Part shown: one piece after another, positions 10,932 to 54,702 of the stretch
How positions within the stretch are numbered: position 1 is the stretch's first letter
How the letters are laid out: every line of letters begins with the position of its first letter
Assembly (NCBI GenBank): GCA_001604135.1
Contig: LVAT01000013.1
Location: 260,896 to 324,895 of the forward strand
Source: Clostridiales bacterium Firm_14
GTDB lineage: Bacteria; Bacillota; Clostridia; Saccharofermentanales; Saccharofermentanaceae
Direction of reading: 5' to 3'
DNA: 64,000 nucleotides
Translations under genes and position numbers: made by a program
Notes under the pieces: generated by a model
The model's database searches: none
What the model saw: only the letters and a program-made list of their open reading frames with translations
Told to the model about the DNA's origin: nothing

Positions 10932-11042
10932 AATAAATCACCTCAACTAATCCGCAATGGCGGTAGCCATTTGCGCCTATAACCGTTTACCCATAATCTT
11001 ACAACAGATATCAAATAAGTGAATGTTCTTACGATAGAAAAT

Positions 11043-12080: not shown

Positions 12081-12098
12081 ACAAATTCCCCCTATAAA

Positions 12099-13544: not shown

Positions 13545-13558
13545 AAATTGTTCCGTAA

Positions 13559-15615: not shown

Positions 15616-15647
15616 CTTAACTTCCTTTATGCCTGTTACTTTGCCCG

Positions 15648-17099: not shown

Positions 17100-18429
17100 C
17101 GTTCTCACCTTTTAACAGAGGGGCGTCATCTGGAATATCTGCTTCAGTCTGAGGCTCCTCGTCTGGAACAATATCATCTGACTCAAATGTGTTGATCACA
17201 TTGTGCTCGAATTCATTCTTATGAATTGTAAGAGCAACAGCTATAGGAAGCCAAAGATGCTGATTATTCCAAAAATAACCACTGAACATATTTAAGGTAA
17301 ATCCGCATATAAACATGATAGTCAAGAATCTGAACAATGAACCTTGACGGTAAAACATGGAAATCTTCTTGATAAAGACAATTAAGACAAACAGGAAGAT
17401 CAATAATCCCACAATACCCGTTTCAGACAATACATCCAGGAAAAGATTATGAGAATAACTTTTCAGATAATAGAAAATGGAACCTATGCCATGGCCAAAT
17501 ACAGGACTATCGCCGAACACTCCTAAGGACTCTAAATACAAGCTCATACGTCCATCATCTAAAAGGCCGCCATTGAAAAAGTCCATAACTCGTTCAATGC
17601 CCTTAACATTTATGCCCAGTAGATTGATTACGAACGGGAAAGCATATCGGAGAAAAATCAGAATGATAACGGCAGGAACAACGATCCTGTAAGCTTTCTT
17701 GCCCCAATACATAAAAACACTTGCGACAAATAAAACAACAAGCAAAACCAGACCGCCTCTTCCTCCGGCCAGGAAACAAGTTGCCGCCTGTATTGCCAAA
17801 AAGACAAAATAAATAAGCTTGTTAAACCATGATAATGGTCTGATCTTTACAGTTTCAGTTATATGGAACAATGTCAATCCGAACGCGTAAGCAGAGAAAT
17901 AAGAAACGTTTTGGTAAGTCAAACCGCTTGAATCACGGATATAACCCGCAATATCGCTGTCGTGGCGGAATAAAGACACAAAGCTGATCACAGTTAAGAT
18001 GATTACGGCCGCGAATATAACCTTAAGATTAATGTCTCTTTTCTTCTTCCACGCGATCAATAACGTAAGGAATATAATGCAAACGGCCATAGCCAGATAT
18101 GACTTTAATTCAGAATAGTATTTAGTGTAATGGAAATCACGGCTAAGACCGGTAATTACAAAAGAAACACCTATAGCCACAAACAGGATAATTACGCTAA
18201 GGAATCCATGCTGTATCATCCTGGAGAAATGTCTGAAACAAAGGCAGGCAGAAATAACTGCAACAATAATATACATTATTGCAAGCTGACCGGATTCTGA
18301 CTGAATATTGAGGAAATACAACACAAATTTTAATATTGCGTTGGCAAACATCATCAATATTATCAGAACATCAAGCATATCAGCTTTAATGCCGTTATTA
18401 TTCAATTGCTCTTTTTGAGATATCTGCAT
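17092..18429 (-). CDS. Wzy-like polymerase / O-antigen-ligase family membrane protein, copy 1
   Basis: Ten or more hydrophobic segments and a Wzy_C-like loop SYSHNLFLDVLSETGIVGLLIF. The start is ambiguous (18462, 18429 or 18378). Confidence 0.65.
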   Translation of the reverse strand: MQISQKEQLNNNGIKADMLDVLIILMMFANAILKFVLYFLNIQSESGQLAIMYIIVAVISACLCFRHFSRMIQHGFLSVIILFVAIGVSFVITGLSRDFHYTKYYSELKSYLAMAVCIIFLTLLIAWKKKRDINLKVIFAAVIILTVISFVSLFRHDSDIAGYIRDSSGLTYQNVSYFSAYAFGLTLFHITETVKIRPLSWFNKLIYFVFLAIQAATCFLAGGRGGLVLLVVLFVASVFMYWGKKAYRIVVPAVIILIFLRYAFPFVINLLGINVKGIERVMDFFNGGLLDDGRMSLYLESLGVFGDSPVFGHGIGSIFYYLKSYSHNLFLDVLSETGIVGLLIFLFVLIVFIKKISMFYRQGSLFRFLTIMFICGFTLNMFSGYFWNNQHLWLPIAVALTIHKNEFEHNVINTFESDDIVPDEEPQTEADIPDDAPLLKGENDG

Positions 18430-19555
18430 ATGAAAATATCTGCATACCTTTCTCTTGTGCAATTTTAGTCATCTCTGACAGCTTTGAGGGCTCAGACAAA
18501 AGCGATTCGATCTTTTCCTGAATCTCCCCTACTGAGTCCTCAGTTAAGAATAATACATTTCCTCCCAGATCAACATGATGCGTACCGGGCCAGTCTTTTA
18601 CGATCATGGGCTTGCCCTGCCCTGTTACCTGCTCCCACATCACGCTGTGCCTTCCGGGGAAGACCACTAAGTCAGAAGCCTCGAAATAATCATAAGTATC
18701 TTCAGAGCTGATCCACCCGATATATTGTACTTTGACAGAATCTGACAGATTCTTAACCTGTTCCTTTAATTCATCCGTAACAGAACCAAATACAATAAGA
18801 CGGACAGAAGGATTGCTTATATTCTGAACGGCCTGCATTAGCAGTAATGTCTGAGTCTTCCACTGATCGATCTTACCGCCGGTTACGATCAAGAAATCAC
18901 TATCACTGATGCCATATTGCTTTCTGATACGGTCACGTGCACCGCTGGTCTTGGCTCTCTCTACAAGCTCATCGTCAGCTCCCATAACCAGAAGCTCACA
19001 TTTATCAGCAGGCAACCCATAGATATCTTTAAGGAAATCCACACGAACCGGAAGCACACCATAAAACTTTTTGGCATATGGTTCAATCTGATGTTCTGTA
19101 TGTTTCCAAACGATCTTATGCAGGATATTCTTAGAGAACCAATTGGTCGCACTGTTTGAGAAATCGGCGTGATTATCAACGAATACAGTAACGTCTTTAT
19201 GATCCTTCAAGAACTTAACGACCTGATCGATATCAAGGAACTGTCCGCCATGAATGAATAAAATGTCCGGATCAGCCTTGCTGATGGCATCGAAAACACC
19301 GATATAGCGCTTCAGTCTCTTCCAAATCTTGCCGTTACTCTTATATGGTAACCTTGTTACCTTTATGTCGTACTCATTCTGATATGTACCGACATTATCG
19401 AGATAACAAGGCTTTCCCTGTTCATCAAAACTTCTGGTTGAAGCGATAACTTCAACATCATACCCAAGCTTTTTATGATACTTGGGAAGTAAGTTTTCCT
19501 GGTAAGAATAATTATCAGGAAAGAATGAACAGAGACACAAATGAACTATTTTCAT
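18398..19555 (-). CDS. GT-B glycosyltransferase (group 1-like)
   Basis: MKIVHLCLCSFFPDNYSYQENLLPKYHKKLGYDVEVIAS is a typical group-1 GT N-terminus. 385 aa. Confidence 0.6.
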   Translation of the reverse strand: MKIVHLCLCSFFPDNYSYQENLLPKYHKKLGYDVEVIASTRSFDEQGKPCYLDNVGTYQNEYDIKVTRLPYKSNGKIWKRLKRYIGVFDAISKADPDILFIHGGQFLDIDQVVKFLKDHKDVTVFVDNHADFSNSATNWFSKNILHKIVWKHTEHQIEPYAKKFYGVLPVRVDFLKDIYGLPADKCELLVMGADDELVERAKTSGARDRIRKQYGISDSDFLIVTGGKIDQWKTQTLLLMQAVQNISNPSVRLIVFGSVTDELKEQVKNLSDSVKVQYIGWISSEDTYDYFEASDLVVFPGRHSVMWEQVTGQGKPMIVKDWPGTHHVDLGGNVLFLTEDSVGEIQEKIESLLSEPSKLSEMTKIAQEKGMQIFSYADISKRAIE

Positions 19556-19559
19556 CTAT

Positions 19560-20177
19560 TTAAGCCTTATCCGGATCAATCGCACTTAGAAGCTTTACGG
19601 GATTGTCGAAAAACTCAGCAAATTTCTTGATCTTATCATCAGGCCAATCCCACCATTTAAGCTCCAACAACCGTTCAATAGTCTCATTGTCAAAGCGTTT
19701 TCTGATCTCCTTTGCAGGCACACCGGCAACTATTGAATAAGGTTCAACATCATGAGTAACAACGGCATTCGCACCGATTATCGCGCCTGAACCGATCTTT
19801 ACTCCGGCTTTAACAAAAACGCCGGAACCTATCCATACATCATTTCCAATGATAACTGTCTCAGAAGGAGAAAACTTGATGGAACCAAAATTGTATCCAA
19901 CTGCACTTTTACCCTCAAGGAATACAGGAGAAGTAGAAACCATATCCGTCGGATGAAGGCCCCCGCCTATCTGGCATCTTCCGCCAATAGAACAGAACGA
20001 ACCGATCTTCGCATCAGTAATATTGGTATTCTTTGCGATATATGAATAACTTCCGAGCTTTACTCTGGATAAAGTGCACTTCTCATATACTTTAGAAGTG
20101 CGGTCGATCTCAGAATCCTTAATAGAAGCTATCTGCATTTTAGACATCAATTTAGCGAAATAAAAAGATAAACCCAT
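19560..20177 (-). CDS. Hexapeptide-repeat O-acetyltransferase (XAT/CatB-Vat class)
   Basis: [52 protein letters not shown] ... KWWDW. Confidence 0.85.
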
Positions 20178-20178
20178 A

Positions 20179-21369
20179 TCAATTACCTCTCACTGCATCT
20201 TCGAGAATCTTCACATATAGTTTAGCATTCTCAACCGGTCCTAATTCAGATAAGAATTCAGCTGCATTATCAGACTTGCGGCTGCCGTTCTTATATACCT
20301 TCAAGATCTCTTCCGCCATAGCATCCGAATCACCGGGAGCTACAACACTCCACTGGTCAACTTTGCTTAAACGCTTAGCCATATCAGAATCAAGATCCAT
20401 GGATACAACAGTAGGGTTCTCAGATAGCAGACAGGTTGCGGTCTTACTCGGCATACAAGTATAAATTACGCCTTTGGGTACCGGATTAATATTGACGTCG
20501 GCAGCACAATAGTTATCCTGTGCATATTCCATAGGCTGACGGCCATAAAAACGTACATTCTTAAGGCCGAGTTCCTCAGTTCTTGCCTTTAATCTGTTTA
20601 AGCCGCTTCCTTCTCCGATAACATAAAATACAATATCCTTATAGCTTTCAAGCTTCTTTGCTGTCTGTACAAGCATCTCAGCATCCATCATCTGGCCGAC
20701 ATTACCGGCATATACAACACGGAAACCGTCGTTTCTTTGTATGTTATTACTGATCAGGAAGTGATTCTTCTCATCAGGAATATCATAGGCTTCATTCTGA
20801 TAACTCCAGTTGTAAATGACATCAACGTCTTCTCTGCCCTCATTTTGGATTGTCTTCTTAAGATCTTCGCTGATGGTTACTACTCTAGTAGCCTTCTTGT
20901 AAGCTTTAGATTGAAGCGACTTTGCGATGATAAATGCAGGATTCGACTTAGACAGCTTCCCTATTACCATCGCATCTATGGGAAAAATATCCTGGACATT
21001 ATAAACGACCGGTATATGCAGTTTATTTGCGATCTTTACCGGAATATAAGCATTATTATTTGATTGAAGGAATATGACATCTATATCAGATAAGGATTTA
21101 ACAACCTTGCCGGATTCTGAATAATACTGAAAGCCTTTAATATATCTGAAGACGAAATTACTCTTAGCCGCAGGCTTCTGAATAACATTGTAGACTTTAA
21201 GCAGTGGTTCATCCTTAAGGTCATCGGGTAATCTGCCGTCACTTTTTTGCACCTGAACGAGAGATACATTATGTCCGGCATTTATCATCTCTCTGATAAG
21301 TCTATGCATGAGATGATAAGAAGAATACCATTCTTCAAAACTAGCTCCGGACCATAGACAAATATTCAT
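20179..21369 (-). CDS. Family 4 glycosyltransferase (WbuB-like)
   Basis: GT-B layout. ATG at 21369 with GAGGAA 5 nt upstream. Confidence 0.75.
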
Positions 21370-21378
21370 CAATATTCC

Positions 21379-22527
21379 TCATTCCGCAAATAATGCCTTG
21401 ACACAAGCTTTTGTAGCACCAACACCATACTGAATGAACTCGTCACGGAATCGCTTGGTATTGGCACACTCGGCATTGTAGTCAATGTTCTTTATTCGGC
21501 TTAATAACTCGTCCTCTGTGCGGCATGACTTATTGGGATATTTCTTATCAATATCGAAATATGTTCCGCGGTCAGCTAAGTAAGTCTCATAATCATAAGC
21601 ATAACAGAATATAGGCTTGCAAAGAACGGAATAATCAAAAGAAATTGCGCTATAATCCGTTATCAGCAAGTCAGATACGATCATAAGATCGTTTACATTG
21701 TTATATTCAGAGTAATCTCTGACAAATTCATCGAACTGTACACCAAGGACCTTGGTCGTCAGGTGATGCGCTCTGAACAGAACGATATATTCTGAACCAA
21801 GCTCTTTCTTCCAATTATCGAAGTGGATCGGAGGCTTGATCTCATAATTCTTGCCACCGTCCGTACTGTCTCTCCAGGTAGGCGCATAGAGGATTATCTT
21901 CTTATCAGAAGGAAGTCCAAGCTTTGACCTTATCTCTTCCCTCTTATTCTCTGTTGCATGCCAGAGTTCCTCATTTCTGGGCATTCCGCATCTTAGATAA
22001 GTACTCTCATTGGCATTAAAGGCACTCTTCCAAACCTTCTCATCGTGACTGCCGGATACCACAAGATGATCTACTGTATCGAAGTTATAGTCATTTCTTC
22101 CGGGACAATCATTACCGATATGCTTCAAAGCAATACCGTGCCAAGTATTAAGATATACCTGTTTTTTCTTCTTAAACTTAAGTCCGCGCTCAATATTGGT
22201 GTTTGTTACCCAGTATTTCGCCTTAAGTGCTGTTCTGAAGTATTTAGCAGAATCTATCATGACTGTATCAAGTTCCGGATGCTCTTCTGGATGCTCAAAT
22301 GCCCATACGCAGCGATATTTGCTATATTCCGGATGAGACTTCATATAATCATAGATTGCTTTGGGGCTGTCATTGAATCCCAATCCCATAAAAGAAACGA
22401 ACAGAACCAGATTATCGTCAATCTTAATGAAAAATCCTAAAAAGCGGAACACAAAGCTCATTATTACGCAGTAGAGCTTCTGTAAAGCAGTATTATGCTT
22501 AAGTATAAATATTACTCTTTGTCTCAT
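21379..22527 (-). CDS. CDP-alditol (glycerol/ribitol) phosphotransferase, TagF/TagB family
   Basis: YLNTWHGIALKHIG, ILYAPTWRD, FRAHH and LITDYSAISFDYSVLCKPIFCYAYDYETY are typical of the Glyphos_transf family. Confidence 0.8.
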   Translation of the reverse strand: MRQRVIFILKHNTALQKLYCVIMSFVFRFLGFFIKIDDNLVLFVSFMGLGFNDSPKAIYDYMKSHPEYSKYRCVWAFEHPEEHPELDTVMIDSAKYFRTALKAKYWVTNTNIERGLKFKKKKQVYLNTWHGIALKHIGNDCPGRNDYNFDTVDHLVVSGSHDEKVWKSAFNANESTYLRCGMPRNEELWHATENKREEIRSKLGLPSDKKIILYAPTWRDSTDGGKNYEIKPPIHFDNWKKELGSEYIVLFRAHHLTTKVLGVQFDEFVRDYSEYNNVNDLMIVSDLLITDYSAISFDYSVLCKPIFCYAYDYETYLADRGTYFDIDKKYPNKSCRTEDELLSRIKNIDYNAECANTKRFRDEFIQYGVGATKACVKALFAE

Positions 22528-22629
22528 ATATCAAATAAATACGGTCATAATAAAGACTGTCCCTGGACAGCCTTAGGAATTCTATCACAAACTCTTATAT
22601 AAAATAAGAATAAAGCGGAAGAATCAGAT

Positions 22630-23808
22630 TTATTTAATATCTTTTGTCCTTAACCGAACCGTCTTACGTATCTGTGTGCTGTTCGTGGTTTCTGTATAAG
22701 GGAAATATACGATCTCAACGTTCTTGTCCTTAAAGAACTCCTCATAACGCTTAAAACGTTCACTTCCCTTGTAATCAGAACCAACAAAAAGCTTATTAAA
22801 GTGATATATAGCCCAAGCATCAGAATCTTCCGTGCATGACTTGACTACTTTATCGACATATCTGCAGCTGGCAACAGTCTCACATCTCTCTTCAAAAGGT
22901 ATAAATGTTTCCTTACCCTTCCAAGCACCGCTCTCATGAACACCGACGATCAGATAATCACACTCAGCTTTTGCTCTGCGCAGAATATTAATATGTCCTA
23001 CATGGAAAAGGTCAAATGTTCCTGACAAATAACCGATCTTAACTCTCTTATGATTGTCGACTCTTCCTGAATCCTTCTTATACTGATAACTATGGAATCC
23101 GTATTCGTGAGGATCGGCCTGATAGCTCTCAATAACCTCTTTAAATGTCTCTTTATACTGAGGAATATAGAGTTCAGTTGACGAGAAAAGCTTGGAAACG
23201 ATCTTAGAAGCCAAAGGTTCAAGAAGTTCTAATCTGTTATCTCCGCCATAAAACTTGGAACCTTTGAATGTTGACGGAGATACATTAAGAATACGGTTCG
23301 AAGTACCGGAAGCCTCTAATTCAATGTTTACGCTCTCAATGAATCTGCATACTGCAGCCTTAGATGCGGAATATACAGAAGCCTCCGGTGAAGATAATAA
23401 ACCGGCAATTGAACCCATAACACCGCAATAGAACTTATCATTAGACTTTATGCGGCCATAAAACAAACGAAGAATCTCAATAGTTGATGTGGCATTTACA
23501 GTCATCATGTTCTTGATCTCTGCCGTATGCATATACTCAAATTCGCATATACGGCCAAAACCGGCAGTAATCATAAGAACCTCAACATTCTTATCAGATG
23601 CTATTGAGGAAATATATTCTTCATTCAAATAAAGGAGATCACAGAAATGATACTCATAAGAACCTGCAGGTATCAATCCTTCATCAGGTTCTTCCCTGTC
23701 CAGGATCTCTACAAAATATCCTTCAGAGACAAGTTTTATAACTATTGCTAGGCCGATTCCGTTACTTCCGCCAATTACTACGGCCTTCTTCGATATATCA
23801 GATGACAT
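22630..23808 (-). CDS. Fusion protein: N-terminal short-chain dehydrogenase/reductase plus C-terminal TagD-type cytidylyltransferase
   Basis: N-terminus has VIGGSNGIGLAI and YSASKAA (SDR Gly-rich loop and YxxxK). C-terminus has GYLSGTFDLFHVGHINILRRAKAECDYLIVGV and CRYVDKVV (HxGH nucleotidyltransferase, TagD-like). Confidence 0.75.
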   Translation of the reverse strand: MSSDISKKAVVIGGSNGIGLAIVIKLVSEGYFVEILDREEPDEGLIPAGSYEYHFCDLLYLNEEYISSIASDKNVEVLMITAGFGRICEFEYMHTAEIKNMMTVNATSTIEILRLFYGRIKSNDKFYCGVMGSIAGLLSSPEASVYSASKAAVCRFIESVNIELEASGTSNRILNVSPSTFKGSKFYGGDNRLELLEPLASKIVSKLFSSTELYIPQYKETFKEVIESYQADPHEYGFHSYQYKKDSGRVDNHKRVKIGYLSGTFDLFHVGHINILRRAKAECDYLIVGVHESGAWKGKETFIPFEERCETVASCRYVDKVVKSCTEDSDAWAIYHFNKLFVGSDYKGSERFKRYEEFFKDKNVEIVYFPYTETTNSTQIRKTVRLRTKDIK

Positions 23809-23969: not shown

Positions 23970-25106
23970 TTACAATCCCATAGCTTTCAACAATTTATCA
24001 TACTTTTCCACTTCAGTTTTATCTATTGAATTTGCTTGTTTAAACTCGGAAAAATAAGCTTTAGTCTTATTTATTCTAAATACTTTGGTCCATCTTACAA
24101 CTTGATAATAAGGAACCAAAATAGGATATTTTCTGCATTTGGGATAATAATTTTCGAGTTCTTCACTTGTTTTAAATATCCTGCCACTGATGTATTTTTT
24201 GCCAGAATCTCTGCGTTTCTTAGAAACAATCATTAAATGTTGGGAACCAAAAACACATCCTGATAAAACTAATTCTTCAAAAAGTCGAGAATTTTCATCA
24301 TGAACATCATCATTAAACCATACATCAATTAACTTACAACATGAATTATAAAAGCCTAAAATGCCAGCACTTTCACAAAACAGTTTAACTTTATTATAAT
24401 CAAAATCCGTTTGAGTCCTCAAAACATAAATATCAAGTAAAGGTCTAATCCCAATTCCACCGCTTTGTATAAAGTGTTTAGCAGCATGAGAAACAATATA
24501 AAACATATTGTATTCCGGCGTGAATACATACCTATATGGTTTTTCTGTGCTAATCGTATTATCCCAAGGGTTCGAAAGAGCATCGCTAATCTTCTCAACC
24601 GAATATTCCAATGAGAAATGCAATTCAAGATGAACATACTGGTTTACAAAATGAGCATCATGACGTTCTTTCTTATAGTATTTAAAACTAGTTTTAGATT
24701 CCAAAACGCGAATTGCTTTATCTAAATCCTCAAGATGAATCAAAACATCAATATCGGAACTAGTTCGCATTTCCGGTTGAGGGTACAGTTCACGAATAAC
24801 AGAACCTTTTAGCGGAATAAACGGAATAGATGAACTTTCTAGAGCATCAGTTATTTCGGCTAAAGAAACCATTCGCTGTGTATAGTCGTATACTGACTTT
24901 GACTCTTCCGCAAGCAAACTTTTACTTATATGTTCAGAATATCCTAATTTCTTTAATCCGGCAGTTATTATAGGAACGATTTTCTGTTTATGTGCAATTA
25001 ATTCTATCGCTTTAAAATCATCCGCATTAATATCAACAGAAACTACCGGAAGATCAAAAGCAGCTCTTATAACAGAGAACAAAACTTCACTTATATTATT
25101 ATTCAT
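23970..25106 (-). CDS. Uncharacterised nucleotidyltransferase family protein (NTP_transf_5-like), copy 1
   Basis: IPFIPLKGSVIRELYPQPEMRTSSDIDVLIHLEDLD matches the LKG...YP...R..DIDLL signature. Confidence 0.6.
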   Translation of the reverse strand: MNNNISEVLFSVIRAAFDLPVVSVDINADDFKAIELIAHKQKIVPIITAGLKKLGYSEHISKSLLAEESKSVYDYTQRMVSLAEITDALESSSIPFIPLKGSVIRELYPQPEMRTSSDIDVLIHLEDLDKAIRVLESKTSFKYYKKERHDAHFVNQYVHLELHFSLEYSVEKISDALSNPWDNTISTEKPYRYVFTPEYNMFYIVSHAAKHFIQSGGIGIRPLLDIYVLRTQTDFDYNKVKLFCESAGILGFYNSCCKLIDVWFNDDVHDENSRLFEELVLSGCVFGSQHLMIVSKKRRDSGKKYISGRIFKTSEELENYYPKCRKYPILVPYYQVVRWTKVFRINKTKAYFSEFKQANSIDKTEVEKYDKLLKAMGL

Positions 25107-33688: not shown

Positions 33689-35074
33689 CTATTCCTTTTC
33701 GCTACTGCTATCAATCGCAGTTGTCTGCCCTTTAGCTACGCCTTCTGTACTTTCCGAAGTAAACAAGATCTTAAACGTTGCAAAGCAGATTCTTATATCT
33801 TCTGCAAAGCTGGGATGAGCAATATACATAAGATCCATCTGGAGTTTGTCATACGGAGTAGTATTGTACTTGCCATATACCTGAGCATATCCGGTAAGGC
33901 CTGCCTTTGCCTGCAGTCTAAGCTGGAATTCAGGGATTTCTTTCATATACTCCTCAGCAATCTCCGGTCTTTCGGGACGAGGACCTACAACTGAGAGGTT
34001 ACCTGAAAGAATATCGATTAACTGAGGCAGTTCGTCTATCCTGCATTTTCTTATAAAACGTCCTACCGGAGTAATTCTGTCATCGTTCTCACCGGAAGAA
34101 AGTCTCGCAACGCCGTCTTTCTCTGCATCTACCCTCATGCTCCTGAATTTATGGATCATAAAGCGCTTACCATTCTTAGTAAGTCTCTCCTGCTTATAAA
34201 ACACAGGACCTTTATCCGTAGCCTTAATAGCAATAGCTGTTATAAGGAATATGGGAGATAAAACGATCAGACCTAACAACGAAGCGAAAATATCAAATAT
34301 TCTCTTCAATAATAAGTAGCCAGGACGCGGATTATATCTCTGAACTCTCAACATCGGAAGATGGAACATATGCATTTGCTTTGCACTGCTCATAATTACA
34401 TCACCAATCCTGGGTATCATGTAAACCTGCTTATTCTCGTACAGACAATATTTGAGAATGAAATTACGATCATGGCTGTGAATACCGCTTAAAAATACTA
34501 CCTCCATATCATCTATCATCGAGAGATCGTCGAGACATTCCTCAACAGAAGCAGTTTTCTTAACATCAAACTTCTTAGAAAGACCATATTCTTCAATAAG
34601 ATCCTTCATACCTCGACGTCTATCGTAAACAATTATGGATTTTTTAGCAGGGAACCACTTAAAGTAAATTCCATGAGAGATGCAAGTCCAAATAATAGAT
34701 ATTGAGACTTGATCAACAAAACATAAAAGAAGCGGCAAAGGATTGGGTAAATGCTTACACAAAAGGACAGTAATAACATACATAATGATGTTAGAAAACA
34801 ACAGCGCTAAAGTCTGACTTGCAATTACATCAAATATGCGATAGTGAGAAATCAAGAAAGCATCATATGTTTTACCAAAGTAGTAATAAAGAACAGCGAA
34901 AATAGCTACAACAGCAACATTCCCCCAAAAAAAGTAGTGAGAACTGACTCTATATTGATAATACATAAACCATGCAACAGCGAATGGTATTACCATGCAT
35001 AATAAGTTTATAAATTTAATAAGTCTCAGACCTATCTCATGTTTGAAAGAATACATTGTACTAGTAGTGTTCAT
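33689..35074 (-). CDS. Polyprenyl-phosphate glycosylphosphotransferase (WbaP/EpsL-type priming transferase)
   Basis: The C-terminal sugar-transferase domain (KRIFDIFASLLGLIVLSPIFLITAIAIKATDKGPVFYKQERLTKNGKRFMIHKFRSM ... DELPQL ... GPRP) follows N-terminal TM segments. The start is set to ATG 35074, because the 100 nt upstream (in frame in the ORF track) is homologous to the noncoding leader upstream of capD. Confidence 0.8.
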   Translation of the reverse strand: MNTTSTMYSFKHEIGLRLIKFINLLCMVIPFAVAWFMYYQYRVSSHYFFWGNVAVVAIFAVLYYYFGKTYDAFLISHYRIFDVIASQTLALLFSNIIMYVITVLLCKHLPNPLPLLLCFVDQVSISIIWTCISHGIYFKWFPAKKSIIVYDRRRGMKDLIEEYGLSKKFDVKKTASVEECLDDLSMIDDMEVVFLSGIHSHDRNFILKYCLYENKQVYMIPRIGDVIMSSAKQMHMFHLPMLRVQRYNPRPGYLLLKRIFDIFASLLGLIVLSPIFLITAIAIKATDKGPVFYKQERLTKNGKRFMIHKFRSMRVDAEKDGVARLSSGENDDRITPVGRFIRKCRIDELPQLIDILSGNLSVVGPRPERPEIAEEYMKEIPEFQLRLQAKAGLTGYAQVYGKYNTTPYDKLQMDLMYIAHPSFAEDIRICFATFKILFTSESTEGVAKGQTTAIDSSSEKE

Positions 35075-35223
35075 AATTCTTATATCTGAAAGCAAAAAGT
35101 GTTTTGAGTAAGCTACGCCATACGAAGCCATTGACTTCGTATCAGTTTCCGACATTTGAAGCTTCCTGACGCGCACTGAAGGCGACGATCATTAGGCCGC
35201 AAAAAACAAAACTACATAGTAGC
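35075..35223 (-). ncRNA. Conserved 5' leader element, copy A (candidate structured regulatory RNA)
   Basis: Shares with 54436-54592 the blocks AATGATCGTCGCCT and GCGCGTCAGGAAGC (both 14/14 identical), a CGAAG-loop-CTTCGTAT hairpin, a GCGYAGC block and CACTTTTT..GCTTTC. Both copies end at a start codon. Confidence 0.45.
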
Positions 35224-35409
35224 TCATCAATAATACTATATTATAATTAATATTAAATAAATAAGTAATTTAATTTTGACAATCAAGGAATTATCAACTC
35301 TACGAATATTGTACAGGTTGTCACCTATACATCGAAGCTCTTATATAGCCTTGCCGCCAAATCCCAAACAACCCGCACACGCAAATTAATCACATCTCAG
35401 AATTATATC

Positions 35410-35445
35410 CAAAAAAAGCAGCTGAGAGAAATCCTCCCAGCTGCT
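35410..35445 (-). terminator. Strong intrinsic terminator of the small monocistronic gene
   Basis: Minus strand: AGCAGCUGGGAG-GAUUU-CUCUCAGCUGCU, a 12-bp stem with one G-U pair, followed by UUUUUUU. Confidence 0.75.
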
Positions 35446-35480: not shown

Positions 35481-35867
35481 TTATTGACGAATAAAAACAC
35501 CGTTTAAGTCTTTTGAACCGTTATTCCAAGTAGCATCAGGATCGTAATTATATATACCATCCCAATTTCTTGCACCTTGAGAAGCCTCAGCATAAAGAGT
35601 GTTTCTAAAGGATTGAGTAGTAGTACCATTCGAAATTCCTGCATTACTGATACCGTGATTTCTCATTACATCCAAAAAATCACTAACAGCATCTCTGGAA
35701 GTCATCGTATAGGTATTGTTGTTGAACTTAACCTGACCGTCTCCAGGCACGCCACCCGAAAATCCGGTCAAATTAACCGATGCTGACATCAACCTACTAC
35801 TTGCTACAATGACATCGCTTTCGGCAAAGCGAATAACAGCCATTTCTGGCTTTCTCATTTTGGTCAT
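35481..35867 (-). CDS. Small hypothetical protein (128 aa), Asn/Gly/Ser/Thr-rich
   Basis: ATG at 35867 with GGAGAA 6 nt upstream. Sequence: MTKMRKPEMAVIRFAESDVIVASS... No signal peptide or TM segment is evident. It has its own terminator. Confidence 0.5.
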   Translation of the reverse strand: MTKMRKPEMAVIRFAESDVIVASSRLMSASVNLTGFSGGVPGDGQVKFNNNTYTMTSRDAVSDFLDVMRNHGISNAGISNGTTTQSFRNTLYAEASQGARNWDGIYNYDPDATWNNGSKDLNGVFIRQ

Positions 35868-36072
35868 ATTTAGTTCTCCGATCATATAAACTCAAAGTAA
35901 AACTACAAAACTTTGTCAAGAAAGTCAAATATTATTTTTATTACTACATAAAGCATATTTTACATTTTAAATTCATCCTCTATGTTTGAAGCTAAACGGC
36001 CACATCTTTTGATGCAGACATTAATCGTTGAAAGCCCAATTTGTTTCTGTTAGTAACATTTTCCAGTAACCT

Positions 36073-36130: not shown

Positions 36131-37627
36131 ATGAAAGTATTATCAGCAGATTTACTTGCTTCAACAGTAGCAGCAAAGCGTAAAGAAAAGAAGATCACTC
36201 AGTCTGATCTTAGCAAAGCTACAAATATTAACCGATCTCTTATATCCCAATTAGAGAATAAGGAGTACACCCCTTCAGCCAACCAGTTAATGGCTCTTGC
36301 TTCAGTTTTGGACTTCAAGATAGATTCCGTCTTCGCTGAACCTAAAACTGAGACAAAAAAGAATTCTAAGAGCTATAAGGTCGCAGTAGCAGGCACCGGT
36401 TATGTCGGCCTCTCCCTTGCAGTTCTCCTTGCTCAGCATAACGATGTAACAGCAGTAGATATCATTCCGGAGAAGGTTGAGAAGCTCAATAACTACATCG
36501 CCCCTATTCAGGATGACTATATCGAGCTTTTCCTCAATGAAGCTAAAGAAGGCAAACGCGAGCTTAATCTTAAGGCTACAACAGACGGCGACAGCGCATA
36601 TAAGGACGCAGATTACATCATCATCGCAGCTCCCACGAACTACGATCCTCAGAAAAACTTCTTTGATTGTTCTGCAGTTGAGGGTGTTGTCCAGCAGATC
36701 AAGGACGTTACTAAGTCAAATAAGAAGAAACCTACTATAGTTATAAAGTCTACAATCCCTGTCGGCTACACAAAGCATGTCAGTGAAAAGCTTGATATGG
36801 ACAACATCATCTTCTTCCCAGAATTCTTAAGAGAGTCCAAAGCTCTTTACGATAACCTCTACCCTAGCCGTATCATCGGCGGAAGCGATGAGAAGAACAT
36901 GGAAGCCGCAAAGATCTTCGCACAGCTCCTTCAGGAAGGTGCCATCAAGGAAGACATCGATACACTTTTCATGGGTACAACTGAGGCTGAAGCTACTAAG
37001 CTCTTCGTAAATACTTACCTAGCATTAAGAGTATCTTATTTCAATGAGTTGGACACATATGCCGAAATGAAGGATCTTAATACGGCTGACATCATCAAAG
37101 GCGTAAGTTTGGATCCCAGAGTCGGTGACTACTACAACAATCCTTCATTCGGTTATGGCGGATACTGCCTCCCTAAGGATACAAAGCAGTTACTTGCCAA
37201 CTACCAGGATGTCCCGGAGAACCTTATTCAGGCAATTGTGGAGTCGAACAGAACTCGTAAAGACTTTATCGCTGATAGAGTTCTTGAAAAGGCAGGAGCA
37301 TACAGTTACACAAATAATAATTATGATGAGAATAAAGAAAAAGAAGTCGTTGTTGGTGTTTATCGCCTTACAATGAAGGCGAATTCGGATAACTTCCGAC
37401 AGAGCTCCATTCAGGGTGTTATGAAGAGAATTAAGGCTAAAGGCGCTACAGTTATTATCTACGAACCTACTCTTGAGAATGGGACAACTTTCTTTGGCTC
37501 ACAGGTAGTAAACGACTTGAAGAAGTTCAAGAAAAAGTGCGGTTGCATCATCGCCAACCGTTATGATCCCGCATTAGATGACGTGGAAGACAAGGTTTAT
37601 ACAAGAGACCTCTTTAGGAGAGATTGA
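36131..37627 (+). CDS. ugd: Fusion protein: N-terminal XRE-type HTH domain plus UDP-glucose 6-dehydrogenase
   Basis: N-terminus has [39 protein letters not shown] (HTH_3-like). Then [19 protein letters not shown] and catalytic [21 protein letters not shown] lies 5 nt before the ATG at 36131. There is no start codon near the dehydrogenase domain boundary. Confidence 0.85.
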
Positions 37628-37628
37628 T

Positions 37629-38549
37629 ATGGGAAAGACGAAAGTCGTACTAAACGGCAAGACTATACTTGTAACTGGTTCGCCCTGATTTGTTGGTACT
37701 AATCTTGTTATCTGATTATTGAAGGAAATGACTGACGGTACGGTCATCTCCCTTGATAACATGAACGATTACTACGATCCGAAGCTCAAGGAATACCGCT
37801 TGTAGCAGATTAAAGAAGTTTCTGAGACTTCATTCGATAATCACATTGGATTTTGCAACATGCTTGAAGCATACAGATATAACAAAGTAGAACACTTAGT
37901 CTACGCTTCCAGCTCTTCTGTCTATGGCGGAAACAAGAAAGTCCCCTTCTCTGTAGAAGACAAAGTAGATAACCCGGTATCACTTTACGCCGCAACAAAA
38001 AAGAGCAATGAGCTCATTGCACATTGCTACTCAAAGCTTTATAACATCCCTACAACAGGATTAAGATTCTTTACGGTTTATGGTCCTGCAGGAAGACCTG
38101 ATATGTTCTATTATTCTGCAACTGAGAAACTCGTTGCCGGAAAGACCATCCAGATATTCAATTACGGCAACTGCAAAAGAGACTTCACATACGTTGATGA
38201 CATCGTAGAAGGCGTCTTTAGAGTTATGCAGGGCGCTCCTGAGAAAGCTAATGGAGAAGACGGTCTCCCCTTACCTCCTTATGCCATTTATAATATCGGC
38301 GGCGGCACACCGGAGAATCTCTTAGATTACATTAGCACATTACAGGAAGAACTTGTCAGATCAGGCGTATTACCTGAAGACTATGACTTTGAAGGCCATC
38401 GTGAATTAGTTCCCATGCAGCCCGGTGACGTTCCTGTAACTTATGCTGACAGCAAAGCTCTGGAAGAAGATTATGGATTCAGACCGACGATCGGAATCAG
38501 AGAAGAGTTAAAGAAGCTTTCGGATTGTTATAAAGAGTATTCGAATTAA
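37629..38549 (+). pseudogene. Decayed NAD-dependent epimerase (UDP-glucuronate 4-epimerase type)
   Basis: A single frame from ATG 37629 reads MGKTKVVLNGKTILVTGSP*FVGTNLVI*LLKEM...LKEYRL*QIKE..., with stops at 37686 (TGA), 37713 (TGA) and 37803 (TAG). About 45-50 codons, including the expected NLAAQAGVRYS region, are missing before HIGFCNMLEA. The rest is intact (HLVYASSSSVYG, SLYAATKKSNE, GLRFFTVYGPAGRPDM). Confidence 0.8.
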
Positions 38550-38647: not shown

Positions 38648-39784
38648 TTATTTTAATCTTTCAAATAAATCTTCAAGATTCATATTGTTATCAGTCTTCC
38701 TAAAGACTTTATTACCACTAATCACTTCAGAAATACCACTTTTAACAAATCTGCATAACTGATAGAACCAAGCAAATGGTCTAAGAACAGCATGTTTTTG
38801 AGCTAAATTCCAATTTACCATGCCAGCCTTTTGAAGGTATCTAAAAGTGCCCATTTCATTCATGGATTTCCTTACATTTTCAAAAGAGGATCTCTCCTGA
38901 CCGAAATTACCATCATTAAGTATGCGTAATAAGAGCTGATCAGCTACCTCTTCATCCGCATAATTACACCATGTAATCTCTTTAGGTAAACCCATCCATT
39001 TTTTACACATAAATGTAACCGTTATGGCTAGTTTTTCAAGCCCCGCTTCAATAGCAAGTTCTCTAAAATTGCTCTCCCATGCCGTATCATCTAGTTCCTT
39101 ATGAACAAACATCATCCAGTCGATTATTTGACGTAATCCAATACCAGTATCCTTTATATGCTGCATGATGTGTCCAAGAAGAACTAAACCATTCTCATAC
39201 TTTGGCAAACCAGAAAAAACTGAATCACCAATCTTGTACTTGACTGAATTATCTAATCCCTTCAACACAATATGATCTATGTTTTTATAGTACTCACAAC
39301 TAAATCTATAGTGAAGCTCAACATCAATACCATTCTTCTCAAATTCATAATGCCTTTCATTATTTGAAACATAAACATAACGATTGCACTTAAACAAATC
39401 AAGAACCGTATCCAAATGTTTTTCCGAAATGTACAAATCAATATCTCCAAAAGTCCTTAACAAAGGCTGAGGATAATAAATAGCAGCAGCAGTACCCTTG
39501 AGTATTACAAATGGAATATTATTATCATTCAAAAGATTAACTATTAAATTCTGTGTATATATCATCTGCATAAAATGTGCTTTATAAAAACGAGATATAC
39601 TATTCCACTCTTCTCTATTTTCGTCAGGAATGCAAGAAGAAATTAATGGTACAACACACTGTATCTTGGAATACTCATACAATTTGTGCCAATTTACTCC
39701 ATCAGGAATCACCGGTCTCAATCCGAAAAGAGCACCCTTTAACAATTCAAATAAACAAGTTTGTTCTATATCAATCAAAATCAT
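38648..39784 (-). CDS. Uncharacterised nucleotidyltransferase family protein (NTP_transf_5-like), copy 2
   Basis: PFVILKGTAAAIYYPQPLLRTFGDIDLYISEKHLD. The ATG at 39784, 4 nt after the wecB stop, is preferred over the overlapping upstream start. Confidence 0.6.
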   Translation of the reverse strand: MILIDIEQTCLFELLKGALFGLRPVIPDGVNWHKLYEYSKIQCVVPLISSCIPDENREEWNSISRFYKAHFMQMIYTQNLIVNLLNDNNIPFVILKGTAAAIYYPQPLLRTFGDIDLYISEKHLDTVLDLFKCNRYVYVSNNERHYEFEKNGIDVELHYRFSCEYYKNIDHIVLKGLDNSVKYKIGDSVFSGLPKYENGLVLLGHIMQHIKDTGIGLRQIIDWMMFVHKELDDTAWESNFRELAIEAGLEKLAITVTFMCKKWMGLPKEITWCNYADEEVADQLLLRILNDGNFGQERSSFENVRKSMNEMGTFRYLQKAGMVNWNLAQKHAVLRPFAWFYQLCRFVKSGISEVISGNKVFRKTDNNMNLEDLFERLK

Positions 39785-39788
39785 TGGG

Positions 39789-40910
39789 TTAAAAATCCGG
39801 TTTCCAAGCGCTATACTCTTTACCCTCAAGTATATCAGCAATTCTTTCACAAGCATGACCATCACCATACGGATTGCATGCCTTACTCATCTTTTCGTAT
39901 GATTCCTTATTCTCAAGTAATTCTATAAAATTATTATATATTACATCTTCATTAGTGCCGACTAATCTGAGAGTACCAGCCTCGACACCTTCCGGTCTTT
40001 CTGTGGTATCTCGCATAACAAGTACAGGAACACCATAGGAAGGACACTCCTCCTGGATGCCACCGGAATCAGTTAAACACAAGTAACTTCGAGCTTCAAA
40101 GTTATGACAATCAAACACTTCGATTGGTTCGATAATGTGTATACGATCACAACCGCCCAGTTCAGATTCGGCAGCGTCTCTTACAACAGGATTCATATGG
40201 ATCGGATAGACTGCCTTACAGTCAGAATGTTCATCAAGAACACGGCGAATAGCTCTAAACATATGATGCATAGGTTCACCTAAATTCTCTCTTCTATGAG
40301 CAGTTATAAAAATCAACTTGTCATCACCGACCCAATCAAGTTCAGGATGAGAATAGTCTTCTTTAACCGTATGCTGCATAGCATCAATAACAGTATTACC
40401 AGTTACATATACACTTTCAGCTTTCTTTCCCTCTTTTAGTAAATTATTTTTAGAAAGAGGAGTTGGGGCAAAATTGTATTGGGAAATAATACCGACAGCT
40501 TCTCTATTAAATTCTTCCGGATATGGACTGTAGATATTATATGTTCTCAAACCGGCTTCAACGTGTCCTACTGGAATCTGAAGATAAAAACAAGCAAGAG
40601 CAGTTACAAAAGTAGTGGACGTATCACCATGAACCAAAACAACATCTGGCTTAACTTCTTCCAAGACAGATTTAATTCCTTGGAGAATATTCGCAGTGAT
40701 ATCAAAAAGAGTTTGACGATCCTTCATGATATTCAAATCATAATCAGGAACGACACCAAAAGTATCCAAAACTTGGTCCAACATCTGTCTATGTTGAGCT
40801 GTTACACAAACGATGGTCTTAATAGAGTCCCGCCTTTTTAACTCATTAACAAGAGGACACATTTTAATGGCTTCGGGCCTTGTTCCAAAAACCAACATTA
40901 CTTTTTTCAT
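39789..40910 (-). CDS. wecB: UDP-N-acetylglucosamine 2-epimerase (non-hydrolysing)
   Basis: MKKVMLVFGTRPEAIKMCPLV ... VCVTAQHRQMLDQVL ... VLVHGDTSTTF ... TDSGGIQEE. Confidence 0.9.
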   Translation of the reverse strand: MKKVMLVFGTRPEAIKMCPLVNELKRRDSIKTIVCVTAQHRQMLDQVLDTFGVVPDYDLNIMKDRQTLFDITANILQGIKSVLEEVKPDVVLVHGDTSTTFVTALACFYLQIPVGHVEAGLRTYNIYSPYPEEFNREAVGIISQYNFAPTPLSKNNLLKEGKKAESVYVTGNTVIDAMQHTVKEDYSHPELDWVGDDKLIFITAHRRENLGEPMHHMFRAIRRVLDEHSDCKAVYPIHMNPVVRDAAESELGGCDRIHIIEPIEVFDCHNFEARSYLCLTDSGGIQEECPSYGVPVLVMRDTTERPEGVEAGTLRLVGTNEDVIYNNFIELLENKESYEKMSKACNPYGDGHACERIADILEGKEYSAWKPDF

Positions 40911-52512: not shown

Positions 52513-54435
52513 TTAAATAAATGTACACGGATGATACGTCGGCACAATATCCTTTACGTATTCCCTGATATTCTCATCGTCTTCCTGGCTGTCGTCATCG
52601 AGCTTGGAGAGCTTTTTCTTGAACTCTTCGTCGTCCATTTCGATGGGCTTGCCGATAAAGATGAGCTTGTTTTTAGTAGTCTTCATGCCTTCTTCAGCCA
52701 TGAGTTTTTCTTCGTAGAGCTTCTCACCCGGTCTTAAGCCCGTGTATTCGATCTTGATATCTACATCAGGTCTTAAGCCTGAGAGCTTAATGAGGTTTCT
52801 GGCCATGTCATCGATCTTGACCGGTTCACCCATATCAAGGACGAAGATCTCTCCGCCCCAGGCATAATAAGATGCCTGAAGGACAAGAGATACAGCTTCA
52901 GGTATCGTCATGAAGAATCTTGTTATGTTCTTATCGGTAACTGTAACAGGACCGCCTTCTGCAATCTGCTTCTTGAACAGAGGGATAACAGAACCGTTGG
53001 AACCTAATACGTTACCGAATCTTACGGCTACAAAGGTTGTATCAGGATACGATCTTTCCATCATCTGGATGACCATCTCACAGATACGCTTTGTGGCACC
53101 CATGATGTTTGTCGGGTTAACCGCTTTATCAGTAGAGATAAGGACAAACTTCTTAACACCTGCTTCAGCTGCAGCCTTAGCAGTCTTATATGTGCCCATT
53201 ACGTTATTCTTGATAGCCTCGTTCGGACTGTCTTCCATAAGAGGGACATGCTTATGTGCAGCAGCGTGGAATACGATATCAGGCTTATACTTCTGCATTA
53301 CAGAATTGATCCTGTGTGTATTTCTTACTGAGCCGATGAGAGTAACCAGATCAAGCTTATATTTATATTTACGGAAAAGTTCCTGCTGGATCTCATAAGC
53401 ATTATTCTCATAGATATCGAATATTATGAGCTGCTTAGGATCATGAGAAGCGATCTGACGGCAAAGCTCTGAGCCGATTGAACCGCCGCCGCCGGTAACC
53501 AGGATGGTCTTGCCGGTGATCATGTTGAACACTTCGCAGTTATCTACAGTAATGGGATCTCTGCCGAGAAGGTCAACAAGCTCTACTTCCTTTATCTGGG
53601 AGACGCTGACCTGACCGTTGGCAAGCTGGTCGATACCCGGAATAGTCCTGAGCTTGCAGCCGGTCTCTTTGGCAATGTCTAAGTATTCCTTTTTAACGAT
53701 TCCGGATACGGAAGGAATAGCATAGATGATAGTATCTACATCGTATTCGGCAGCCTTAGTGATAAGGTCATCTTTGCCGCCTACGATCGGAACGCCATAA
53801 AGGGATCTTCCCCATTTTGCAGGGTTATCATCGATTATACATACGGGGACTTGGTTAGCATCAGGATAATTCTTGAGTTCCTTGATAAGGACGCTGCCGG
53901 AATTACCGGCACCCAGGATCATTACATTATGAGTCTTCTTGCTGTCTGAATTCCTGATGGTCTCTGTAGTTTTAACGAATCTTCTTAAGATCCTGTAAGA
54001 GAACCTGATAACGACATGCAGGAATAAAGCTGTAAGTGTACCAAATACATAGAATGTAAATGGCATCCTCATATGGAGTATCCATGAGGACAAAACGAAT
54101 ATGGGAGATAATATAAGATAAGCTTCGATTATCCTGATCGCTTCTTCAAGTGAGAAATACGACCAGATACTGTGATACAGACGAAGTCCATAGAAGACTA
54201 CAAAGGTGAATAAACACCAAAGAGGCACAAGATAGCACATCCATTCAAGATACATCGGATCTATATCTTTGAACCGGAAGTCATATCGGATGTAGAGAGC
54301 CATAAAGAAGGCAAAGCACGTTGCTAATATGTCACAAAAAAATATGATCAGTGCTCTGCTGATCCATGACTTATAATTCAGGTTGTACTTGTGCTCCTTT
54401 TTGCAATCATCATTTTGGGTAGTAACATTATCCAT
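52513..54435 (-). CDS. capD: CapD/PglF/WbpM-type membrane-bound nucleotide-sugar 4,6-dehydratase/epimerase
   Basis: Four N-terminal TM segments, then ILGAGNSGSVLIKEL and VTGGGGSIGSELCRQ ... HAAAHKHVPLME ... STDKAVNPTNIMGATKR. Confidence 0.9.
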   Translation of the reverse strand: MDNVTTQNDDCKKEHKYNLNYKSWISRALIIFFCDILATCFAFFMALYIRYDFRFKDIDPMYLEWMCYLVPLWCLFTFVVFYGLRLYHSIWSYFSLEEAIRIIEAYLILSPIFVLSSWILHMRMPFTFYVFGTLTALFLHVVIRFSYRILRRFVKTTETIRNSDSKKTHNVMILGAGNSGSVLIKELKNYPDANQVPVCIIDDNPAKWGRSLYGVPIVGGKDDLITKAAEYDVDTIIYAIPSVSGIVKKEYLDIAKETGCKLRTIPGIDQLANGQVSVSQIKEVELVDLLGRDPITVDNCEVFNMITGKTILVTGGGGSIGSELCRQIASHDPKQLIIFDIYENNAYEIQQELFRKYKYKLDLVTLIGSVRNTHRINSVMQKYKPDIVFHAAAHKHVPLMEDSPNEAIKNNVMGTYKTAKAAAEAGVKKFVLISTDKAVNPTNIMGATKRICEMVIQMMERSYPDTTFVAVRFGNVLGSNGSVIPLFKKQIAEGGPVTVTDKNITRFFMTIPEAVSLVLQASYYAWGGEIFVLDMGEPVKIDDMARNLIKLSGLRPDVDIKIEYTGLRPGEKLYEEKLMAEEGMKTTKNKLIFIGKPIEMDDEEFKKKLSKLDDDSQEDDENIREYVKDIVPTYHPCTFI

Positions 54436-54592
54436 AACCCTCTTTTCTAGGAAAGCGAAAAAAGTGAAAATTTGCAGGCTGCGCTATACGAAGTCTCCAG
54501 TTCTTCGCATAAATTCTGAAATCTGTGGCTTCCTGACGCGCGCAAAGGCGACGATCATTCAACCACAAAAAACCAAACTGCACGTTTGCAGC
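54436..54592 (-). ncRNA. Conserved 5' leader element, copy B (candidate structured regulatory RNA)
   Basis: Homologous to 35075-35223 (see copy A). Preceded by an extended -10, TGTTAAAAT (54608-54600). Ends at the capD ATG. Confidence 0.45.
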
Positions 54593-54702
54593 CCAAGATA
54601 TTTTAACATACTAATTAGGCAAAAGATTAAAAAAACGCTGATTATTTGACAGTTTAAAACGCACTACGCGAACAAATTTATGTCAATTTGATAATTAGCC
54701 GA

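Follow-up and report, generated by a model that had tools for sequence, protein, structure and literature searches.

A 64-kb stretch of contig LVAT01000013.1 from Clostridiales bacterium Firm_14 (64,000 nucleotides [nt]; hereafter the window) carries on its minus strand two copies of a leader element of ~117 bases. Copy A (core 35225..35110) precedes a gene for a priming transferase of the WbaP/CpsE type (Bac_transf), and copy B (54594..54476) precedes a gene for a dehydratase of the CapD/EpsC type (Polysacc_synt_2). Together with 12 further distinct versions from other assemblies, the two copies define a lineage-specific family of structured 5’ leader RNAs, narrowly distributed in rumen Clostridia related to Saccharofermentans. 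The copies had been noticed earlier from the letters of the window alone, in a note (the original prediction) that proposed a conserved leader upstream of both polysaccharide units as a candidate cis-regulatory RNA.

Alignment of 35226..35075 with 54594..54436 (minus strand) gave 78% column identity, and the sequence blocks listed in the original prediction occur in the same order in both copies. The 14-mers AATGATCGTCGCCT and GCGCGTCAGGAAGC have two exact occurrences apiece in the 64 kb; any further match in the window requires 3 mismatches and is as frequent as expected by chance from shuffled sequence. A covariance model was built from the 14 distinct leaders. Searched against the window, it scored 102.5 bits for copy B (full model) and 99.1 bits for copy A (E ~1e-22), and the third-best score was 15 bits. 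The shared leader before the two units is thereby confirmed (99 and 102 bits against 15 for the next site), and no third copy was found in the window with this model. The same model found no extra copies in the homologous loci. The proteins that follow the two copies are unrelated, as had been claimed (Bac_transf for copy A, Polysacc_synt_2/CapD for copy B). One block of the proposed shared core did not hold: about half of the homologs lack the distal block CACUUUUUGCUUUC, which lies outside the conserved core. The predicted open reading frame (ORF) behind copy A begins at GTG 35176, a start suspected to be about 34 codons too long. This suspicion is borne out: the true start is ATG 35074..35072, and a homolog 99% identical to the product is annotated from that ATG with a length of 461 amino acids (aa).

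All 14 distinct leaders come from rumen Clostridia assemblies, and one related protein carries the name Saccharofermentans sp. Every leader lies directly 5’ of the first gene of a polysaccharide operon, of either the Bac_transf or the CapD type. Conservation beyond this genome had been named as a check on the original prediction, and the 12 additional versions provide it. A strict pattern searched over one genome per species (185,579 species genomes) yielded 1 true match, L001 from a metagenome-assembled genome of a rumen Ruminococcaceae, and 2 chance matches. A looser pattern returned 107 stretches from JGI metagenomes, 6 of them true and the others G+C-rich chance matches, and a scan of viral contigs gave no true match. 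Divergent versions were reached by way of homologs of both downstream proteins and their flanking contigs, which contributed L008, L011, L122, L127, L132 and L137. In the distant orthologs L006/L007 (74% protein identity) and L014 and L129-L131 (77-79%), the element was not found within the fetched flank. Both paralog types are present on a single contig of another genome, JAEEGJ010002238.1 (L009 and L123). The duplication into two leader types is therefore old and predates the divergence of these organisms. The most divergent leader, L011 (L011 1852..1960), precedes a 105-aa remnant of a CapD-type gene (2148..2465) that is followed by a priming transferase; a 57-aa HTH_3 ORF lies upstream of this leader, and the gene caller laid a spurious 71-aa ORF over it.

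Selection on the element was assessed as mean identity over all pairwise comparisons of 10 orthologous copy-A-type loci. The element averages 86% nucleotide identity, compared with 62% for the spacer between element and ATG, 65% for the 120 nt upstream and 55% for third codon positions in the first 1200 nt of the gene. Its conservation equals that of the downstream protein (84% amino acid identity), and its variable positions cluster in loops. These values point to strong purifying selection on the element. They also bear on the possibility that the two copies reflect a recent, functionless duplication of a promoter/leader fragment, as their distance of 19 kb in one genome and their 78% identity might suggest. 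We find this hardly credible: the element is far better conserved than third codon positions, spacer or upstream DNA, its substitutions keep the pairing described below, and the two paralog types occur together on a contig of another genome. The contrast between 86% and 55%, with the variation confined to loops, effectively excludes a neutral remnant. Conservation around the element is mosaic. The spacers of L001 and L059 are 100% identical and their 120 nt upstream 59% identical, whereas L059 and L060 display the opposite pattern (spacer 63%, upstream 98%). This mosaic suggests recombination breakpoints at or near the leader.

In the minimum free energy (MFE) folds of both copies, a helix (P1) closes a structure made up of a long arm (P2) and a hairpin (P3), with z-scores against shuffled sequence of -2.3 for copy A and -2.1 for copy B. 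The two 14-mers turn out to be opposite strands of a single bulged helix, upper P2 (UGAUCGUCGC with GCGCGUCA), which has eight pairs and two bulged U. In copy A, its 5’ strand at 35182..35191 is the core of the first 14-mer, its 3’ strand at 35167..35174 is the start of the second, and the loop between them (35181..35175) is variable in sequence and length. The corresponding strands of copy B are 54557..54548 and 54541..54534. Beneath upper P2 there is a conserved internal loop, UAA opposite GGA, and then a lower stem in which the 3’ end of a U-tract pairs with CAAA. Lower P2 is formed in copy A by UUUGCGGCC (35195..35203) and AGCUUCAAA (35155..35163), both in the MFE fold and in the consensus, and in the MFE fold of copy B by 54569..54561 and 54530..54522. 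P3 occupies 35120..35142 in copy A (AUACGAAG at 35142..35135, a 7-nt loop and CUUCGUAU at 35127..35120) and pairs 54510..54503 with 54493..54486 in copy B. P1 closes the junction by pairing 35225..35219 with GUAGCUU at 35110..35116 in copy A, and 54594..54588 with 54482..54476 in copy B. The whole element is thus predicted to be a three-way junction, a larger architecture than the one originally described. A tentative extra helix, P1a (GUAGUUCUG with the J2/3 junction strand, the P2-P3 linker), appears in most MFE folds. In a fixed register 86% of it is paired; double changes are absent from it, and in the copy-B types the pairing depends on the register.

The fold was largely recovered without supervision. 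MAFFT followed by RNAalifold, with no hand alignment, returned the 5’ local hairpin described below, lower P2, upper P2 and P3. When P1 was placed in this alignment instead of the local hairpin, 97% of cells were paired, as compared to 28-50% with the partners slid by 1-3 columns. Double changes were present at four pairs in the unsupervised alignment, and the observed values were reached by 1-2 of 500 shuffles. A hand-curated alignment that included L011, and that is biased toward structure, had double changes at eight pairs, with values reached by none of 500 shuffles. Compensatory changes, another check named beforehand, are seen in P1, P3 and the 5’ hairpin. P1 pair 2 occurs as A-U, G-C, G·U and U-A. 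P3 has 100% of its cells paired around an unconserved loop of 7-9 nt, and its first pair changes from A-U to G-C in L132 and its second from U-A to C-G in L011. The local hairpin varies among A-U, G-C and G·U and includes one A-U to G-C double change. Upper P2 is paired in 99% of cells and has changed only by C-to-U opposite G and by one A·C mismatch, and in lower P2 pairing is preserved through one-sided wobble changes. The J2/3 strand and both terminal loops are variable and the helices are invariant in sequence. We consider the predicted fold well supported, although short of statistical proof because divergence is shallow and most pairs never vary.

Conserved G·U pairs at P1 pair 1, in lower P2 and at P3 pair 3 would become C·A if the other strand were the one that folds, and the loops of P2 and P3 differ in length by 1-2 nt. 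Both features place the structure in the sense RNA and not in the DNA. The blocks are invariant in primary sequence, as would be expected of a DNA-level operator downstream of the promoter that involves no RNA structure. Such an operator could serve, for example, the HTH_3-UDP-sugar dehydrogenase fusion encoded divergently beside copy-A-type leaders at several loci, and an additional conserved box does lie upstream of the promoter. Even so, an operator is improbable. Besides the C·A mismatches that it would contain, it leaves unexplained why P1, P3 and the 5’ hairpin carry double compensatory changes. The P2 half-sites differ by two bulged bases and the P2/P3 spacers by 1-2 nt, which is unsuited to a symmetric dimer, and no HTH gene adjoins copy B or its homologs.

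The original claim that the leader is non-coding holds as well. The AUG in the first 14-mer, within AAUGAUCG, is not kept (CUG in L001, UUG in L122), and one-base differences in P2 loop length shift the frame. The loss of this AUG and the frame shifts, which affect the conserved 3’ block, ruled out a conserved upstream ORF or leader peptide attenuator.

The 5’ strand of the element, GAGCUAC in copy A and GGGCUGC in copy B, can pair with either of two partners. The local partner is GUAGU or GCAGU, respectively, and the distal partner, ~105 nt further 3’, is GUAGCUU or GCAGCCU. In copy A these three segments were found where they had been placed, at 35225-35219, 35215-35211 and 35116-35110. Local pairing forms a 5’ hairpin (35209..35225 in copy A: GAGCUAC at 35225..35219, loop UAU, GUAGUUU at 35215..35209; 3’ strand at 54581..54575 in copy B, within the whole element at 54476..54594). 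A U-tract directly follows it (UUUUGUUUUUUG, 35200..35211 in copy A), the 3’ part of which is the 5’ strand of lower P2. The 5’ strand of the local hairpin doubles as the 5’ strand of P1, so the local and distal pairings are mutually exclusive and the RNA is predicted to have two alternative conformers. The local hairpin is paired in 98.5% of cells in the 13 sequences that have it, the U-tract is conserved in 13 of the 14 leaders, and P1 is part of the MFE fold in 10 of 14. By constrained folding, the gap between the two states ranges from -6.6 to +5.8 kcal/mol among homologs; four sequences favour the local hairpin, and all of these have an A·C mismatch. This mismatch, at P1 pair 6, occurs in 5 of the 14 leaders. 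The three segments had been said to change in concert, and they do so between copies A and B. The concerted change is nevertheless weaker evidence than it appeared, because the distal partner is polymorphic (U or C) among close copy-A-type relatives, the A·C mismatch recurs and the local hairpin is always paired. One simple switch was tried and rejected, in which the 5’ hairpin and U-tract form a terminator governed by P1 as antiterminator. The 3’ strand of P1 is transcribed ~90 nt after the U-tract, and P1 therefore cannot block formation of the 5’ hairpin.

These alternative pairings raise the possibility, which we regard as real but doubtful, of an orphan riboswitch. The P1/P2/P3 junction would then be an aptamer, and its ligand a metabolite or second messenger with a bearing on both polysaccharide pathways; a nucleotide sugar, a cyclic dinucleotide and an alarmone are examples. 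Binding of the ligand would shift the RNA toward P1 or toward the 5’ hairpin, with an output through Rho-dependent termination, RNA decay or ribosome access instead of a classical terminator. Three helices meeting in a junction, together with a conserved internal loop and bulges, would suit such a role, as would two mutually exclusive pairings of the 5’ strand that are both conserved, the small energy gap between the two states and the presence of the same element at the head of two operons of one pathway class. NusG-dependent pauses are also common in riboswitch leaders (PMC11602163). Against a riboswitch, an expression platform was not found, the spacer being unconserved, unstructured and devoid of a terminator. 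Variable J2/3 and terminal loops combined with invariant helices are more in keeping with a macromolecule as the recognizing partner, the element is very narrowly distributed (the single true strict-pattern match among the species genomes) and no Rfam riboswitch model matches.

Each copy is likely to have its own promoter. An extended -10 ends 4-7 nt before P1; it is TGTTAAAAT in copy B (54600..54608) and in several homologs, L122 and L004 among them, and TATTAT in copy A. In copy A two -10 candidates can be read within 35230..35245, TATAAT at 35245..35240 and TATTAT at 35235..35230, and homologs carry an extended -10, TGNTAAAAT, at the same position as the copy A -10, with 6-7 nt separating it from P1. 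Given this distance, transcription would start at P1 or a few nt from it, and the fold should begin at ~+1. Further upstream, ~50 nt 5’ of P1, a box TTGTCAAA(T)AAT or a close variant is present in most homologous loci and in copy B, and the window has no enrichment of it elsewhere. It can be read as TTGTCAAA at 35275..35282 in copy A and as CTGTCAAATAAT at 54652..54641 in copy B. At this distance the box cannot serve as the -35 of the main -10, and it may instead be the target of a regulator or belong, as the -35, to a weak upstream promoter (N17 and then TATTTA, TCATAT or TAATCT).

A search for an output signal downstream of the fold was negative. Neither copy has a terminator-like site between the 3’ strand of P1 and the ATG. 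The A/U-rich spacer is unstructured and contains no conserved sequence between the element and the ATG (62% identity). It measures 35 nt in copy A (35075..35109, including the ribosome-binding region) and 40 nt in copy B (54436..54475, with CACUUUUUUCGCUUUC and a Shine-Dalgarno region AGAGGG), where the CapD-like start codon follows at 54435..54433. Conserved anti-Shine-Dalgarno pairing, or a sequestered Shine-Dalgarno, was not found. The description of the leader as conserved, structured and non-coding thus stands, while the words “regulatory” and “switch” continue to go beyond what the element itself displays, no expression platform having been found. Two sites nevertheless resemble terminators. 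The 5’ hairpin and U-tract of copy B were flagged as terminator-like, and ~70 nt inside the CapD-like coding region a hairpin at 54364..54346 (minus strand; GATCAG, a 7-nt loop and CTGATC) is followed by ATATTTTTTT.

Because the stretch between element and start codon yielded neither a terminator nor a sequestered Shine-Dalgarno nor any conserved sequence, we tentatively favor the early transcription elongation complex as the target of the leader. At the 5’ hairpin and U-tract, close to the promoter, polymerase would pause or meet a weak stop that depends on a factor. Either RNA polymerase or a trans-acting factor would then be bound by the folded P1/P2/P3 domain, which would allow an operon of ~9 to 16 kb to be transcribed in full. 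Such a role would parallel that of EAR (the eps-associated RNA) in Bacillus eps operons and of the LoaP-hairpin complex in dfn/mln (PMC7858274, PMC12691694). It would also be similar to that of ops, although the element is related to none of these. Leader-dependent processive antitermination is established for polysaccharide operons elsewhere (PMC7858274, PMC12691694), and in Bacillota a T-rich tract that follows a hairpin signals NusG-dependent pausing (PMC9963633, PMC11602163).

Several observations weigh against an action on the elongation complex. L011 has P1 and lacks both the local hairpin and the U-tract. The transcription start is itself read from the sequence. Terminator-like sites, counted on both strands with lenient criteria, are not clearly enriched in the regions of the operons (6 against 4.7 expected for operon A; 16 against 8.1 +/- 3.3 for operon B), and L122 and L127 do not share the hairpin inside the CapD-like gene. 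No NusG/KOW Pfam match was found among the window proteins scanned or the neighbour annotations of homologous loci. The element also has no similarity to EAR, JUMPstart or put RNAs.

The missing local expression platform is equally what would be expected if the leader were a platform for a trans-acting RNA-binding protein or small RNA that affects translation or stability, and/or a 5’-terminal stabiliser. A helix at the 5’ end would shield the long mRNA from 5’-dependent decay, and the invariant bulged P2 would be the protein recognition site. There is a helix at the inferred 5’ end in both conformers, and stems of invariant sequence with variable loops are typical of protein operators on RNA. 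A simple stabiliser, however, does not need 117 nt conserved at 86%. No linked gene for an RNA-binding protein was found among the window and neighbour annotations, and CsrA-type GGA motifs are not conserved (CAGGAAGC becomes CAUGAAGU or UAUAAGGC). On the whole we rate this explanation as unlikely. Other motifs were examined by eye and were rejected. Copy B and L011 do not keep the hammerhead core CUGAUG-CGAAG, the G·A positions of a K-turn are Watson-Crick pairs in the element, a boxA-like GUUCU is not conserved, and ANTAR and RAT motifs had no match.

The element is a concrete and testable candidate: its helices are defined, its two conformers compete, and a genome offers two natural paralogs of it. 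Mutagenesis can take its lead from variation that already exists in nature, for example the U/C polymorphism in P1 or the loss of the 5’ hairpin in L011. It might be a self-sufficient RNA that reprograms polymerase, which would make it the third protein-independent class of processive antitermination after phage put and Bacillus EAR, or it might be a new riboswitch aptamer that senses a cell-envelope precursor or second messenger and so controls capsule production in rumen Clostridia. We look on this prospect with some skepticism. If it were true, a self-acting antitermination RNA or a ligand sensor would add a new class to a short list. If the element proves to be no more than a stabiliser or protein operator, it can still usefully mark where capsule loci start in rumen metagenomes.

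The operons headed by the leaders comprise 9 to 14 polysaccharide genes over roughly 9 to 16 kb. Operon A encodes the priming transferase, glycosyltransferases, Wzy, a UDP-sugar dehydrogenase and a flippase. Operon B encodes CapD, a second small Bac_transf protein, glycosyltransferases, Wzy, LicD, a flippase, a 2-epimerase and an NTP_transf_5 protein, and a gene set of the Wzz/CpsD/CpsB/LytR type lies 5’ of copy B. Both leader-headed operons end in an NTP_transf_5 gene (38648..39868 and 23970..25106). A third polysaccharide block at 9963..23808 (minus strand) encodes a Glyphos_transf protein, several GT1/GT2/GT11 enzymes, Wzy and two flippases; no priming transferase was identified in it, and the covariance model found no leader copy there.

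Divergent from copy A, at 36131..37627 (plus strand), lies the gene for the fusion mentioned above, a 498-aa protein with an N-terminal HTH_3 (XRE-type) domain and a complete UDP-glucose/GDP-mannose dehydrogenase. The same fusion is found beside copy-A-type leaders in L004/L005, L008-L010 and L132, and probably in L001. It could be a sugar-nucleotide-sensing regulator of the locus. Between the fusion gene and copy A there is a 134-aa ORF without a Pfam match (35481..35885, minus strand), followed by a strong 13-bp terminator at 35445..35417 (minus strand), upstream of copy A. ORFs of similar size and position, also without a Pfam match, are present in L132 and L137 (130 and 126 aa), and a comparable ORF is absent from L004 and L008, where the intergenic region is ~370 nt. 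A 229-aa ORF (37860..38549, plus strand) matches only positions 98-235 of the Epimerase profile and looks like an N-terminally truncated NAD-dependent epimerase. The equivalent neighbourhood in L005 keeps a full 355-aa epimerase and an extra 407-aa UDP-sugar dehydrogenase, which suggests a deletion or rearrangement near 37860..38549.

Upstream of copy B, a 196-aa ORF without a Pfam match (55804..56394, minus strand) adjoins a gene for a protein with a weak Sortase domain (56473..57282, minus strand), and the two lie between the CpsB/CpsD/Wzz-type genes and a LytR_cpsA_psr gene. The 196-aa product has a signal-peptide-like N-terminus and, at its C-terminus, SPQTGD, a hydrophobic stretch and RAKKATK; on account of these features it looks like a sortase substrate. 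A 195-aa homolog occupies the same position in L122 and L127.

In Proteobacteria, Bacteroides and Bacilli, long polysaccharide operons each have a dedicated leader-based system that keeps RNA polymerase going. To our knowledge, no comparable system has been described for this group of Clostridia, which dominates the rumen, and no described motif of this kind was found in the literature. The window was compared with 4227 Rfam families by cmscan, using gathering thresholds over its whole length and E up to 10 on both leaders. There were 0 matches at gathering thresholds in the 64 kb, and at E up to 10 each leader gave only noise (best E 0.24, a eukaryotic small Cajal body-specific RNA). The set searched includes the curated riboswitch classes as well as the epsC (EAR) and JUMPstart motifs. 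The original view that the element is neither a known riboswitch nor EAR accordingly agrees with the absence of any family match.

EAR is the closest counterpart in size and setting. It is a structured cis-acting RNA of ~120 nt in exopolysaccharide and capsule operons of Bacillota and supports processive antitermination over long operons (PMC7858274). Like EAR, the element is a structured leader of about that length in polysaccharide operons, with no local expression platform. It differs in having no match to EAR (epsC) in sequence or structure and none in Rfam to E 10, and antitermination by it is hypothetical. LoaP leaders stand 5’ of long biosynthetic operons, contain a required RNA hairpin and a pause site, and are duplicated before dfn and mln (PMC12691694); here, too, one genome has the same leader element before two operons. 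The LoaP determinant, however, consists of a small hairpin with a UNCG tetraloop and, after it, a leader terminator that depends on NusA (PMC12691694), whereas in the element the loops of the 5’ hairpin, P2 and P3 vary, with UCCG or UUCG appearing sporadically and in P2 only (L008, L122). There is also no terminator downstream of the element and no gene for a NusG paralog in the window or beside the homologs.

JUMPStart/ops (RfaH, Proteobacteria) and the UpxY leaders of Bacteroides resemble the element as short conserved segments of the 5’ untranslated region (5’-UTR) before many polysaccharide operons. The ops sequence is 12 nt long, acts as non-template DNA, depends on RfaH and comes from another phylum. 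The J3/1-P1 3’ segment (U)GGCGUAGC (GCGGCAGC in L011) resembles the ops core, GGCGGTAGC, a post hoc 8-mer likeness that is not conserved in every version (AGCGCAGC). The full 12-mer GGCGGTAGNNTG is absent; the element has only GGCG-TAGC, which is one base short and variable, and no Rfam JUMPstart match. With orphan three-way-junction riboswitch candidates, the element shares its 5’-UTR position, a junction closed by P1, a conserved internal loop and alternative pairing of the P1 strand, and it differs from them in lacking an expression platform or known ligand, in its invariant helices and in its very narrow distribution. Since none of the defining features that were tested was found, the element lies outside the EAR, JUMPstart and LoaP-leader families and every Rfam riboswitch class. 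It is a new RNA family within a known kind, the structured leaders of polysaccharide operons, and by analogy it may work like EAR or a LoaP leader despite belonging to neither.

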